DNA from: a virus
Lineage: Duplodnaviria; Heunggongvirae; Uroviricota; Caudoviricetes
Virus record (IMG/VR): IMGVR_UViG_2877973648_000001
Span: 1-20,998 of that record
Strand: one strand, 5' to 3'
DNA: 20,998 nucleotides
The translations under genes were made by a program, and so were the position numbers. The number at the start of each line of letters is the position of its first letter. The stretch's first letter is position 1. This document shows, in pieces, positions 12,817 through 18,414 of this stretch. Under the pieces are notes generated by a model, which saw only the letters and a program-made list of their open reading frames with translations, had not been told where the DNA came from and made no database searches.

Positions 12817-13363
12817 GAAGATATCTATTAGGACATTAGCGAAACAATACGGTTACGATGAATCTACAGTACGTACTTGGATTGAGAAAGGTATGCCTAC
12901 AGATACCGAACAAAACTCAAGAGTATGGATTGTTGAACATGTATTGAAGCCATTGAGAGATACTAATACAAAAGAACAAATCGAACAAGAAAGATTGAAG
13001 AAACTATCAGCCGAACGCCAACTGGCAGAACTTGAATTAGCTGAAAAGAACGGTGAAGTACTGCAAACCTCATACGTAGAGCAAGTACTGACAGAATATC
13101 TGTTTCAAGTTAAAACCGCAATGCGTGCGATACCATCCAAAACATACCTAGAGTTATTTGCACAGAATGATGCAAAAGATCTACGAGACATATTAAAAGA
13201 AAATATTGATAAGACTTTACTCCAGCTTGGAAGCATGGAATTTGAGTTACCCACGGATGAAGAACTAAATGGACAACAAGAAGAAACTAACGAGGTTATT
13301 GAAGAAAGTACTACCGACATTACAACCACCGAAGATACAGAAAACCAGCGAATGGATCAGTAA
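12815..13363 (+). CDS. phage terminase small subunit (Nu1-like, N-terminal HTH)
   Basis: Track ORF 182 aa; [28 protein letters not shown] parallels the Nu1 N-terminal HTH (..LADIFGASIRTIQNWQEQGMP); acidic C-terminus; immediately precedes and overlaps the large-subunit gene. Confidence 0.65.
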
Positions 13364-14027
13364 CGGTGTAGTGAAATTTGTTGATGGGCCGAATATGGGG
13401 CTTGATTGGCTTCCATTTAGTTTTCAAAAAGAACCGATGGATATAGCTCAGGATAGAAGTACTAAAAAGATAGTACTTCAGTCATGCAGCCAGCTTTTAA
13501 AAACGACAGTACTACAATCAATTGCATTTAATCTAATGGCTAATGATCCCTGTAACTTTGCTTTTGGTAATAGTTCGGAATCTGAAGTGAAGAAGTTCAA
13601 AGATGGTAAGTTTTTACCAGCTATTGAAACCAGTTCAGTACTGAAGCCATTAGTAACAGATAAGAATGATAAAAACGCCGCCAATAACTCGAAACAAACA
13701 CAGATGATCAACGGCACGTTTATCTATTGGCTAAACCTTAATACACCAGGAAACCTACGCGGTATTACAACACGTGTTGTTCTGTTGGATGAAGTCAGTA
13801 CCTGTGAGATTACTGATGAAGGAAATCCAATTAAACTGGCTGAAGCACGTACCAGTACTTTCGGCAGTGATTCACTAGTCGTTGTATCTTCTACGCCATT
13901 GTATAAAGACGACTTAATCAATGCTGAATATAACCTTTCAGATAAGCGACGGTACTATGTTACTCATACATGCGGTCATGAATATACTTTCGAATGGGAA
14001 CAAGTAGCATTTGAATTTAAAACATGA
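13269..14027 (+). pseudogene. terminase large subunit N-terminal fragment (ends at the IS2-like insertion)
   Basis: Track ORF 252 aa; the stop at 14025-14027 is created by the first bases of the IS2-like element. Confidence 0.6.
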
Positions 14028-14061
14028 TCTTGACCCTCCATCTCCGAACAGCTTTTGTATC

Positions 14062-14943
14062 TTAAGTTAACGATGTCCGCTGCCGCCGGTATTCCCTCGG
14101 GGAGTGATATCCCAGCGCGCTGTGCGGGTGGTTTTCATTGTAATGCGTGAACGCTACTGCAAGGTTTCGCAGTGCTGTTCTCACATCCGGTTTTGGCATG
14201 AACGCGATATAGTCTTCTTTCATCGTTTTCACGAACCGTTCGGCCATGCCATTACTCTGCGGGCTGCTCACCGCTGTTGTGCAGGGCTCCAGATTCAGCT
14301 CTCTCGCGAACCTCCGCGTTTCATACGCGGTATACGCTGAACCGTTATCCGTCAGCCACTGCACCGCTGTGTCGGGCAACCTGTCGCCGAAGCGCTTTTC
14401 CACCGACCTCAGCATCACATCCTGCACGGTCGAACTGTCATAGCCTCCCGTGCTTGCTGCCCAGTCTATGGCCTCACGGTCGCAGCAGTCCAGCGCGAAC
14501 GTTACCCGCAGTTTTTCGCCGTTGTCGCAGCCGAACTCGAAGCCATCTGAACACCAGCGCATATCGCTTTCTGCCACCGCTATCTTGCCCTTATGTTCAA
14601 GCTTCGGTCGCTCTGGTTTGTGATGCAACAACAACAGGTTATGCTCGCTCATTATCCTGTAAAGCCGTTTGGCATTCACAGGTGGCTGTCCCTCTGTGCG
14701 ACGTTGCTTGCGCAGGATGCCCCACACGCGTCGATAACCATAACTCGGCATATCGCTGATAATGTTGAGGATAGCCGACAGTATTTCTGCGTCTGCTTCT
14801 TCATTACGCCGGTTACAGCGCCTGTCCTGCCAGTCGGCAGAACGGTTAATCCGCAGTGACAGTTGCGCACGCGACACGCCCATGGTCCGGCTGACCATGG
14901 CTATTCCCCGTCCTTTGGCAACAAGGGCGCGTGCGCTATCCAT
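14062..14943 (-). CDS. IS2-like transposase OrfB (DDE integrase domain)
   Basis: Track ORF 293 aa; ...[31 protein letters not shown]...[11 protein letters not shown]... resembles IS2 InsD. Confidence 0.8.
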
Positions 14944-15296
14944 TTTCGCGACTGACCGTACTCCACGGCTTCTTTCAGGATCTCAACTTCCATCGTCTTC
15001 TTGCCCAGAAGGCGCTGAAGCTTCCGGACCTGCTTCAGAGCAGCAGTAAGCTCAGAAGCAGGAACGACTTCCTCTCCAGCCGCAACGGCGGTGAGGCTGC
15101 CTTCCTGATATTGCTTCTTCCACTTAAACAGCAGGCTGGGCTGGATACCATGCAGGCGGGCGACATGGGAGACATTCATACCCGGCTCCATCGTCTGCTG
15201 GATAATGGCGATCTTCTCCTGAGGAGTTTTACGTTTACGGACTTCTTGCCCTAACAGGATCCCGGTCATCTCAAAATTGGCGTTAGTGTTAGACAT
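14901..15296 (-). CDS. IS2-like transposase OrfA (HTH)
   Basis: Track ORF 131 aa; ...[52 protein letters not shown]...[15 protein letters not shown]... resembles IS2 InsC. Confidence 0.8.
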
Positions 15297-15360
15297 ATAT
15301 TCAAGCCTATCTCTTATCTGGAGATACAGCTACTGTCCGGTGTTTCAGGGGGCTACATCA

Positions 15361-15676: not shown

Positions 15677-16871
15677 GGAAGGTGCGAACAAGTCCCTGAT
15701 ATGAGATCATGTTTGTCATCTGGAGCCATGGAACAGGGTTCATTATGAGTCATCAACTTACCTTCGCCGACAGTGAATTCAGCAGTAAGCGCCGTCAGAC
15801 CAGAAAAGAGATTTTCTTGTCCCGCATGGAGCAGATTCTGCCATGGCAAAACATGGTGGAAGTCATCGAGCCGTTTTACCCCAAGGCTGGTAATGGCCGG
15901 CGACCTTATCCGCTGGAAACCATGCTACGCATTCACTGCATGCAGCATTGGTACAACCTGAGCGATGGCGCGATGGAAGATGCTCTGTACGAAATCGCCT
16001 CCATGCGTCTGTTTGCCCGGTTATCCCTGGATAGCGCCTTGCCGGACCGCACCACCATCATGAATTTCCGCCACCTGCTGGAGCAGCATCAACTGGCCCG
16101 CCAATTGTTCAAGACCATCAATCGCTGGCTGGCCGAAGCAGGCGTCATGATGACTCAAGGCACCTTGGTCGATGCCACCATCATTGAGGCACCCAGCTCG
16201 ACCAAGAACAAAGAGCAGCAACGCGATCCGGAGATGTATCAGACCAAGAAAGGCAATCAGTGGCACTTTGGCATGAAGGCCCACATTGGTGTCGATGCCA
16301 AGAGTGGCCTGACCCACAGCCTAGTCACCACCGCGGCCAACGAGCATGACCTCAATCAGCTGGGTAATCTGCTGCATGGAGAGGAGCAATTTGTCTCAGC
16401 CGATGCCGGCTACCAAGGGGCGCCACAGCGCGAGGAGCTGGCCGAGGTGGATGTGGACTGGCTGATCGCCGAGCGCCCCGGCAAGGTAAGAACCTTGAAA
16501 CAGCATCCACGCAAGAACAAAACGGCCATCAACATCGAATACATGAAAGCCAGCATCCGGGCCAAGGTGGAGCACCCATTTCGCATCATCAAGCGACAGT
16601 TCGGCTTCGTGAAAGCCAGATACAAGGGGTTGCTGAAAAACGATAACCAACTGGCGATGTTATTCACGCTGGCCAACCTGTTTCGGGCGGACCAAATGAT
16701 ACGTCAGTGGGAGAGATCTCACTAAAAACTGGGGATAACGCCTTAAATGGCGAAGAAACGGTCTAAATAGGCTGATTCAAGGCATTTACGGGAGAAAAAA
16801 TCGGCTCAAACATGAAGAAATGAAATGACTGAGTCAGCCGAGAAGAATTTCCCCGCTTATTCGCACCTTCC
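15677..16871 (+). mobile_element. IS5 (1195 bp) flanked by 4-bp CTAG duplication
   Basis: Ends GGAAGGTGCGAACAAG (15677) and CTTATTCGCACCTTCC (ending 16871); CTAG at 15673-15676 and 16872-16875; encoded transposase matches IS5 InsH essentially throughout (from memory). Confidence 0.9.
15745..16725 (+). CDS. insH: IS5 transposase
   Basis: [35 protein letters not shown]... through ...[14 protein letters not shown]; start taken at the Met of MSHQLTF rather than the track start 15709. Confidence 0.9.
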
Positions 16872-17039
16872 CTAGATATACTTCAATTGGAATCATTACG
16901 TGAAGATGAATTTAACCTACATAAAATACATGAAAGTACTTTAGGCATAACAATATCTGTAGACCAGCTGACCTGCTCCCCGTTGATTAGTACACCCCGA
17001 TGTTAGTAATGTCTTCATAAGCCACATGAGGACATCCCC

Positions 17040-17303
17040 ATGAAGAAGCGTTTTTCCGACGAACAGATCATCAGTATTCTCCGCGAAGCCGAAGCTGGGG
17101 TACCCGCCCGTGAACTCTGCCGCAAGCATGCCATTTCCGATGCCACGTTTTACACCTGGCGTAAGAAGTATGGCGGTATGGAGGTGCCTGAAGTTAAGCG
17201 CCTGAAGTCGCTTGAGGAAGAGAACGCCAGACTCAAGAAGCTGCTTGCCGAAGCCATGCTGGATAAAGAGGCGCTTCAGGTGGCTCTTGGGCGAAAGTAC
17301 TGA
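17040..17303 (+). CDS. IS407-group transposase OrfA
   Basis: [49 protein letters not shown]...[15 protein letters not shown]... closely resembles IS407 OrfA as I recall it. Confidence 0.8.
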
Positions 17304-17326
17304 CGACAGACCAGAAGCGGGAAGCC

Positions 17327-18160
17327 GTGATGTTGATGTGTGATGCGACCGGTCTGTCGCAACGTCGTGCCTGCAGGCTTACAGGTTTATCCCTGTCGAC
17401 CTGCCGCTATGAGGCTCACCGTCCGGCTGCTGATGCGCATTTATCAGGGCGCATCACTGAGCTGGCACTGGAGCGCAGGCGTTTTGGCTACCGTCGTATT
17501 TGGCAGTTGCTGCGCCGTGAAGGGCTTCATGTTAATCATAAGCGCGTGTACCGGCTTTATCACCTCAGTGGCCTGGGCGTAAAACGCAGAAGACGTCGTA
17601 AAGGGCTGGCAACAGAACGTCTGCCGCTGCTCCGTCCGGCGGCGCCCAATCTGACCTGGTCGATGGATTTCGTCATGGACGCACTTTCCACCGGTCGCAG
17701 GATCAAGTGTCTTACCTGCGTCGATGATTTCACAAAGGAATGCCTGACGGTCACTGTTGCCTTTGGGATTTCAGGCGTTCAGGTCACGCGTATTCTGGAC
17801 AGCATTGCACTGTTTCGAGGCTATCCGGCGACGATAAGAACTGACCAGGGGCCGGAGTTCACTTGCCGTGCACTGGATCAATGGGCCTTTGAGCATGGTG
17901 TTGAGTTGCGCTTAATCCAGCCGGGCAAGCCAACGCAGAACGGATTTATTGAGAGCTTTAACGGACGATTTCGCGATGAATGTTTGAATGAGCACTGGTT
18001 CAGCGATATCGTTCATGCCAGGAAAATTATTAATGACTGGCGGCAGGATTATAACGAATGCCGCCCGCACTCCACGCTGAATTATCAGACACCGTCTGAA
18101 TTTGCAGCGGGCTGGAGAAAGGGTCATTCTGAGAATGAAGATTCCGACGTTACTAACTGA
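17327..18160 (+). CDS. IS407-group transposase OrfB (DDE integrase)
   Basis: Track ORF 277 aa with ...[10 protein letters not shown]...[56 protein letters not shown]... (rve-type catalytic core). Confidence 0.8.
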
Positions 18161-18414
18161 GTGTTGTATCTAATCGTGGGGGCAGGTCATTCTGTACACT
18201 GTATTCCGCGACAATACAAAAGATACTGATGGACTACTTACACGTGTTTCAGAACTGGAAACTAAACAAGCAGTACAGGAAAGTAGTATGGTGCGTATTG
18301 AAGCTGATCAGAATAAGATGCGTGATGCTTTAACTAAACTTGAAAACCAGATCCATGATCTGGATGTGAAAATTGAAAAAATCATTACCATTCTTGAACA
18401 GAAACAATAAGAAG

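Follow-up and report, generated by a model that had tools for sequence, protein, structure and literature searches.

IS-mediated decay of the terminase gene in an Escherichia coli prophage: two insertion sequences and an 18-kb deletion bounded by ISSen4

Non-essential prophage genes collect insertion sequences (ISs) and IS-bounded deletions, as in the defective or cryptic prophages of Escherichia coli and Shigella. For one element of the IS3 family, IS150, the long-term evolution experiment (LTEE) has yielded 14 adjacent deletions, ranging from 14 bp to 48.9 kb and none with a target duplication, which lay beside pre-existing copies and were often small initially and later extended (PMC11708052). 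Target duplications are given as 5 bp in the IS2 subgroup, as 4 bp in IS407 and as 3 bp elsewhere in the IS3 family; discrete classes, of ca. 5, 15 and 25 bp, are reported for IS481, IS1202 and IS481EU alone (PMC10045372). Here we describe the large terminase subunit gene (terL) of a prophage contained in a stretch of 20,998 nucleotides (IMG/VR record IMGVR_UViG_2877973648_000001; hereafter, the window), where three different ISs follow one another. We hold with high confidence that the element is a decaying, low-GC, siphovirus-like prophage and that the feature is ordinary IS-mediated prophage decay: two of the ISs are clean insertions in terL, and the third, ISSen4, sits at the junction of an 18,141-bp deletion that joins terL to a different gene. 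IS-driven decay of this kind is already known, and there is no unusually short terminase here; the locus is the same in kind as cryptic E. coli and Shigella prophages, and its relatives at the same site bear differing sets of ISs.

The window is a 100% match to the chromosome of E. coli AREA_C483 (NZ_CP123310.1, a closed chromosome record), within a prophage island of ca. 25 kb that lies between yeaG and mipA and opens with a large serine recombinase gene. The G+C content is ca. 35% in the island versus ca. 55% in the IS blocks; AT-rich and non-essential, the prophage acts as a sink for insertion sequences. In a set of 5,426 complete E. coli genomes, the window's sequence for terL and the adjacent small-subunit gene, terS, was found at an identity of at least 99% only in AREA_C483, with relatives of 67-78% identity in nine further genomes. 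The RefSeq annotation, made with the Prokaryotic Genome Annotation Pipeline (PGAP), already shows terminase fragments and three transposases at the locus, whose features are as follows.

12815-13363, plus strand: terS, terminase small subunit, 182 aa, intact (PHROG phrog_57, E = 5.7e-23; same name in PGAP).
13269-14024, plus strand: terL fragment A, codons 1-252, with most of the ATPase domain (Pfam); colinear with intact 629-aa homologues.
14010-14024, no strand: left copy of the 15-bp target duplication of the IS2-like element, TTTGAATTTAAAACA; the right copy, at 15361-15375, is a perfect repeat.
14025-15360, minus strand: IS2-like element, 1336 bp, IS3 family, IS2 subgroup, ends TG...CA; orfA 15296-14901, orfB 14943-14062.
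15361-15676, plus strand: terL fragment B, codons 253-352, preceded by the second copy of the 15-bp repeat (15361-15375); 100% or 99.7% identical to IS-free alleles.
15677-16871, plus strand: IS5, 1195 bp, with terminal inverted repeats and the transposase at 15745-16725; IS5-like, IS5 family, in PGAP.
16872-16968, plus strand: terL fragment C, the last terL sequence retained, to codon 383 plus 1 nt; 100% identical to positions 11508-11604 of the intact reference (see below).
16969-18189, plus strand: ISSen4, 1221 bp, IS3 family, IS407 group; orfA 17040-17303, frameshift element 17270-17387, orfB 17327-18160.
18190-18410, plus strand: nt 47-267, the 3' part left over from a different gene, which encodes 88 aa and is intact in L005 and L007 (MDIGTILALIISGCVLLYTVFRDNTKD...EQKQ).

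Searches with the rejoined terL protein against 50,697 phage records retrieved no close cultured phage, the best match being Escherichia phage DCP80 with 33.6% identity. Named phages being too distant, we used as references the IS-free prophage alleles from draft and Logan assemblies, which are available as proteins (P0016 and P0046) and as loci (L003, L021, L022, L026 and L029). The intact reference (REF) comes from a single Logan contig, whose two fetched loci overlap perfectly over 545 bp. A previous sequence-only reading of the window had proposed a comparison with intact homologous prophages and a search for IS-free alleles in related strains, and such alleles do exist.

The first two ISs are clean insertions, and for both of them the sequence-only reading had the coordinates exactly right. 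The ends of the IS2-like element are set by its other copies in E. coli, which match only positions 81-1416 of a query spanning window 13945-15440, and the 15-mer TTTGAATTTAAAACA that flanks it is present only once in IS-free alleles (proteins P0016 and P0046, and the overlap of the L003/L021 alignment). IS5 is flanked by a CTAG duplication (15673-15676 and 16872-16875), and its transposase matches the NCBIfam model transpos_IS5_4 with 364 bits. Its length, inverted repeats, DDE transposase and 4-bp duplication at a YTAR-type site are all those expected of the IS5 family (ca. 1195 bp, inverted repeats of 16 bp), YTAR being the preferred target of IS5. Intact homologues read straight across both sites: FEFKT, duplicated around the IS2-like element, occurs only once in P0016 and P0046, and IS-free alleles continue as ...YQKELDILQLE... 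across the IS5 site. Removal of the IS2-like element plus one 15-mer, and of IS5 plus one CTAG, leaves 1150 nt that align to REF without gaps and with 2 mismatches (1148/1150).

The gene had been taken for a GpA-type terminase large subunit, and the domain matches bear this out. In the rejoined product, GpA_ATPase (PF05876) spans residues 52-290, covering profile positions 14-247 of 247 (E = 1.1e-50), whereas GpA_nuclease (PF20454) is matched only over profile positions 2-85 of 294, against 2-285 in the intact homologue P0001; ca. 70% of the nuclease domain is therefore missing, and a complete set of GpA-type domains is not present. A search of 5.8 billion proteins retrieved many homologues from Enterobacter, Klebsiella and E. 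coli, a large number of which have 629 aa, with 89-100% identity in the part that the window retains; full-length matches are of ca. 580-646 aa, and the intact homologues of 629 aa carry GpA_ATPase at residues 53-291 and GpA_nuclease at 303-575. Like lambda-type gpA (PF05876 plus PF20454), the window gene has a complete ATPase domain once the ISs are removed, and a Nu1/DUF1441-like small-subunit gene lies just upstream; unlike it, the gene is interrupted twice by ISs and breaks off at codon 383. Fragment C encodes ...ESTLGITISVDQ, as in intact terL proteins, and past the last terL residues of the window (...ITISVDQ) the intact protein runs on as QLDRLEATVLGF... for 246 residues more.

The third IS behaves differently. 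The ends of ISSen4 are set by hundreds of E. coli copies, which match only positions 90-1310 of a query spanning window 16880-18420; the window copy is 99.4-100% identical to other copies, receives the name ISSen4 from PGAP, contains the -1 frameshift signal IS1222_FSE of Rfam (156.6 bits), and has a terminus that reads TGACCTGC... The element had been placed as IS407-like at about 16958-18198, and its true span is 16969-18189. The wider limits took in 11 nt of terL (TGTAGACCAGC, from the S-V-D-Q codons) on one side and, on the other, 9 nt that belong to the gene downstream; joined directly, they leave the two sides out of frame unless 1 or 4 extra nt are removed, and they are refuted by the other copies and by the protein alignment. 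With the correct ends there is no target duplication, the left flank being ...GACCAGC (CAGC) and the right flank TTCTGTAC... (TTCT). Other ISSen4 copies do have 4-bp duplications: GCCC in L002, TCAG in L025, and CAGC in both L020 and L037. A simple insertion is likewise at odds with the intact reference, in which the two flanks are 18,141 bp apart: window 16968 aligns with REF 11604, window 18190 aligns with REF 29746, and the 18,141 bp between them are absent from the window.

To the right of ISSen4 the sequence belongs to another gene, which adjoins a lysozyme gene as follows.

18403-18457, no strand: inverted repeat with 23-nt arms and a 9-nt loop, between the convergent 88-aa and lysozyme genes; probably their shared terminator hairpin.
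18449-18898, minus strand: phage lysozyme gene, 149 aa, intact (Pfam Phage_lysozyme).

The tail beyond ISSen4 is 100% identical to the 3' part of an 88-aa gene that, in relatives, has its own start codon and is convergent to the lysozyme gene. Its product (MDIGTILALIISGCVLLYTVFRDNTKDTDGLL...ILEQKQ) has, as judged by eye, a hydrophobic N-terminus followed by a coiled-coil-like tail, and it did not show convincing membership of any family in Pfam or PHROGs; at the remnant, PGAP annotates only a 40-aa hypothetical protein (18288-18410). Many E. coli assemblies encode the exact lysozyme protein, likewise between yeaG and mipA, and the gene served as an anchor for finding relatives.

These data alter the picture of a single gene hit three times. 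All three ISs are real and lie inside or abut terL, which starts at 13269, but the last fragment comes from another gene, which is precisely what had been named as the finding that would undo that picture. Excision of each IS plus one copy of its repeat rejoins the frame for the IS2-like element and for IS5, and not for ISSen4, where there is no duplication and two genes are joined. The open frame that reaches 18410 after excision does exist and has 456 codons; it is, nevertheless, a chimera of two genes that is in frame by chance, with odds of one in three. Only its nt 1-1150 are colinear with the terL family, and the last 221 nt are from the different gene. The coiled-coil tail is, then, not the end of a terminase: in the full-length homologues that we checked no coiled coil closes the protein, and those with an intact 3' end finish in ...RRRTGMGSNWFGK. 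Likewise, the protein of ca. 455 aa does lack most of its nuclease domain, as had been suspected, because terL was truncated by the deletion and not because it is a novel short terminase. We consequently give almost no credence to three simple insertions in one short (ca. 455 aa) GpA-like gene, naturally devoid of a nuclease and with a native coiled-coil C-terminus: the 456-codon frame from 13269 to 18410 speaks for it, and the ISSen4 copy without a duplication, the 18,141 bp between its junctions in relatives and the position of the tail in a separate 88-aa gene all speak against it. For the terminase the result carries little weight: it adds one more prophage taken apart by ISs and sets this over-reading right.

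The missing interval takes the last 246 codons of terL and, following REF, a 176-aa gene; a portal gene (Phage_portal_2), an S78 protease-capsid fusion and two small genes; a 946-aa Peptidase_S74 fibre gene; the major tail protein gene, downstream of which are two small ones encoding 99 and 121 aa; a gene for a putative tape measure of 736 aa and a DUF6216 gene in opposite orientation; a trio of small genes, one for a DUF6950 protein of 133 aa and the others for 185 and 207 aa; the gene for a 1067-aa tail-tip protein, one that encodes 98 aa, and DUF8377; and the start of the 88-aa gene. The prophage had been called packaging-defective, and DNA packaging is indeed impossible; the term even understates the damage, as not a single head or tail gene is left in the window. 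We also considered a phage satellite, with terS kept and capsid genes absent, and rejected it because the complete set of morphogenesis genes is present in near-identical relatives at this site.

As IS elements are classic points of misassembly, the three repeats could have caused a collapse or misjoin, with the 18 kb truly present in AREA_C483. However, the chromosome is closed, and the same architecture is found in a second NCBI genome, GCA_902505245.1 (L006/L024), with 100% identity over 6.2 kb (window 12800-19000), and in part in two metagenome contigs from different projects, one held by ENA (L028) and the other by JGI (L045). Its recurrence in independent assemblies makes a misassembly unlikely, and we consider an artefact of this sort very improbable.

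The relatives also bear on how the deletion arose. In GCA_900450495.1 (L020 and L004) the two flanks are 100% identical to those of the window, and the 18 kb are still present. This genome carries an ISSen4 in the 88-aa gene with a right junction identical to that of the window (the right inverted repeat, IRR, followed by TTCTGTACAC), and at the left junction of this copy 8 bp (CTGTGTAC) are already gone and there is no duplication; an original insertion in the 88-aa gene with a TTCT duplication followed by the left inverted repeat (IRL) would read GGCTGTGTACTTCTTGACCTGCTCCCC. As with IS150 in the LTEE, there is an IS3-family element at a deletion junction without a duplication, one junction is retained, and the relative has lost little (8 bp, or 12 bp supposing that the insertion had produced a TTCT duplication) against the 18.1 kb lost here. 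The two cases differ in that ISSen4 belongs to the IS407 group and that ours is a natural isolate without a time series, for which we infer the order of events. Because the right junction is retained and a small loss in one lineage accompanies an 18-kb loss in another, in the manner of IS150, we favour a stepwise adjacent deletion on the IRL side of the ISSen4 copy in the 88-aa gene.

In this account terL, of 629 aa when intact, took up the IS2-subgroup element after codon 252, with a 15-bp duplication, and IS5 within codon 353, with its CTAG duplication. Separately, ISSen4 would have inserted in the 88-aa gene, which lies beside the lysozyme gene where the morphogenesis module ends, and the DNA beside its left end would then have been lost stepwise. 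In the lineage of the window the loss comes to 18,141 bp and ends in terL, at a site of the kind that ISSen4 prefers. This last point comes from an unrelated ISSen4 in E. coli S51 (L037), which follows TTAGACCAGC with a CAGC duplication, the same 9-mer as at the terL site (TAGACCAGC); it suggests that ISSen4 prefers targets resembling its own terminus, TGACCTGC, and the deletion endpoint in terL, immediately after ...AGACCAGC (window 16959-16968), is such a site.

Several points weigh against this reading. REF rests on a Logan short-read assembly contig, even if the overlap of its two fetched loci is perfect. In GCA_900450495.1, moreover, an ISSen4 is inserted in terL at the exact nucleotide of the window junction, in opposite orientation and with a CAGC duplication (L020 15300-16535), so the terL site either received two hits or was where the deletion halted, exactly at the outer boundary of a copy already there. 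All the ISSen4 copies compared are 100% identical, and hence there are no internal markers to separate the possible routes. The data show directly the three ISs with their ends, the two clean insertions, the deletion with its two endpoints and the origin of the right flank; the mechanism of the deletion is inferred and not proven.

One other route is RecA-dependent homologous recombination. Two ISSen4 copies in direct orientation, the first at CAGC in terL and the second in the 88-aa gene, would recombine and leave a single hybrid copy without a duplication. Recombination of this type is a common source of IS-bounded deletions (PMC11708052); in addition, L020 and L037 demonstrate that ISSen4 can target the terL site, and a close relative does have the copy in the 88-aa gene. 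It presupposes, however, a terL copy in plus orientation, with a junction from IRR to terL reading GGGGGCAGGTCA and then CAGCAATTAGACC (GGGGGCAGGTCACAGCAATTAGACC), and the sole terL copy observed in a relative is inverted, so that recombination would invert the interval and not delete it. No plus-oriented intermediate appeared in the loci and the metagenome scan examined; that single scan, for the junction between terL and ISSen4, retrieved only another copy of the window type, truncated inside ISSen4. Recombination also leaves unexplained the 8-bp loss and the absent duplication at the same IS end in the relative, and we regard it as unlikely, although a serious competitor.

Alternatively, in an ancestor like GCA_900450495.1 with its inverted copy in terL, the outer end (IRR) of that copy might have been joined to the IRL of the ISSen4 in the 88-aa gene, by transposase synapsis or by microhomology, with loss of the terL copy and of the 18 kb. 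The two ends, which both read TGACCTGC..., have the same orientation; the first 8 nt of IRL recur in the reverse complement of IRR, likewise as its first 8; and the window junction falls at the exact nucleotide where the ISSen4 of the relative begins, so that no coincidence is needed. Nevertheless, we found no precedent for such joining, a microhomology of 8 nt over ca. 19 kb is a rare substrate and, from the known mechanism of the IS3 family, ends in direct instead of inverted orientation would not be a normal transposase substrate. We thus see it as distinctly improbable, more so than homologous recombination, and retain the stepwise adjacent deletion as the favoured route.

Relatives at the same site show other stages of decay.

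L021, L022, L026 and L029: terL intact.
GCA_042748925.1 (L025 10557-14420): the IS2-like element and a single IS5 in terL, with 474 bp lost.
GCA_900450495.1 (L020/L004; L020 10557-18473): five ISs in terL, namely the IS2-like element, an IS630-like element, two IS5 and ISSen4, with several more elsewhere in the prophage.
GCA_900448905.1 (L002/L008): ISSen4 and another IS3-family element, at other positions of the prophage.

The loss of 474 bp in L025 is consistent with recombination between two IS5 copies. Together with the window, the locus offers a well-sampled natural series at one chromosomal site, from an intact prophage to two ISs, five ISs and an 18-kb deletion. The series is of some practical use for teaching how ISs drive the decay of a prophage, and it parallels in nature what laboratory evolution has shown of deletions that grow stepwise beside an IS.

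The behaviour of the two IS3-family elements is of moderate interest, above that of the terminase, and the IS2-like one could appeal to transposition specialists. The IS2-like element is the sole copy in the AREA_C483 genome, and PGAP describes its transposase as intact, with a programmed frameshift. It resembles the IS2 prototype in the layout of orfA and orfB, in its TG...CA ends and in having the IS2 models of NCBIfam as its best matches (TnpB NF006918, 413 bits; TnpA NF006928, 199 bits); it differs in that both scores are under the IS2-specific cut-offs, and in producing duplications of 15-16 bp against the 5 bp cited for the subgroup. We surveyed the duplications of copies at least 97.8% identical to the element (loci L012-L019 and L030-L036), which occupy 15 independent sites: nine of the 15 have 15 bp and four have 16 bp, with one duplication of 5 bp, inside ISEcp1, and one site with none. 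Several of the targets are AT-rich, with AATTTAAA-like cores. Copies 78-94% identical to the element, ISEc48-like ones among them, had rearranged surroundings or lay in tandem with other ISs, and none yielded a duplication that could be used.

The literature searched, which did not cover ISfinder, contained no report of a 15-16-bp duplication class in the IS3 family or the IS2 group, and nothing specific on the mechanisms of ISEc48 or ISSen4. We advance only tentatively, and with somewhat less than even confidence, that these duplications may represent a class unrecorded in the IS3 family, about one helical turn off the canonical 5 bp and in this respect like IS481 and IS1202, and that ISSen4, which recurs at one precise terL nucleotide as an insertion or as a deletion end, beside a sequence like its own terminus, might use end-directed targeting that shapes where deletions stop. 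An IS2-like element with duplications of 15-16 bp implies, within the IS3 family, a different spacing of the two strand-transfer sites on the target. As a separate observation, in an ENA metagenome contig (ERZ27318664; L023, from 12547 onward) terL fragment A and the IS2-like element are followed, beyond the right end of the element, by unrelated DNA with an integrase fragment and ankyrin- and methylase-like genes; the IS2-like element therefore marks a rearrangement junction in another lineage too.

The window has other features as well. Directly upstream of the terS start codon there are three tandem 9-bp units (AAAAAGGAT-like; 12781-12816). Within terL, just upstream of the ISSen4 site (window 16918-16939), a 9-nt unit is expanded in frame in some relatives (P0037, P0050 and L002 10851-10901), which encode HKIHKIHKIH versus HKIH here. 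A 149-aa gene adjoining the lysozyme gene (18939-19388) matches the SegE-type GIY-YIG family and homing-endonuclease PHROGs. In the left part of the window, positions 4217-5806 contain an HNH endonuclease gene and then a gene matching the PADLOC entry 'Type II methyl-directed restriction enzyme' (E = 1.6e-62). A 3575-bp insertion on the minus strand (5728-9302), absent from IS-free relatives, is an IS3-family element split by a group II intron, with an ALIL pseudoknot at 8856-8972, a reverse transcriptase/maturase at 6333-7856 and an intron domain match at 6243-6329; starting at 5728, it replaces the 3' end of the PADLOC-matching gene, whose product is of 286 aa here versus 263 aa in relatives.

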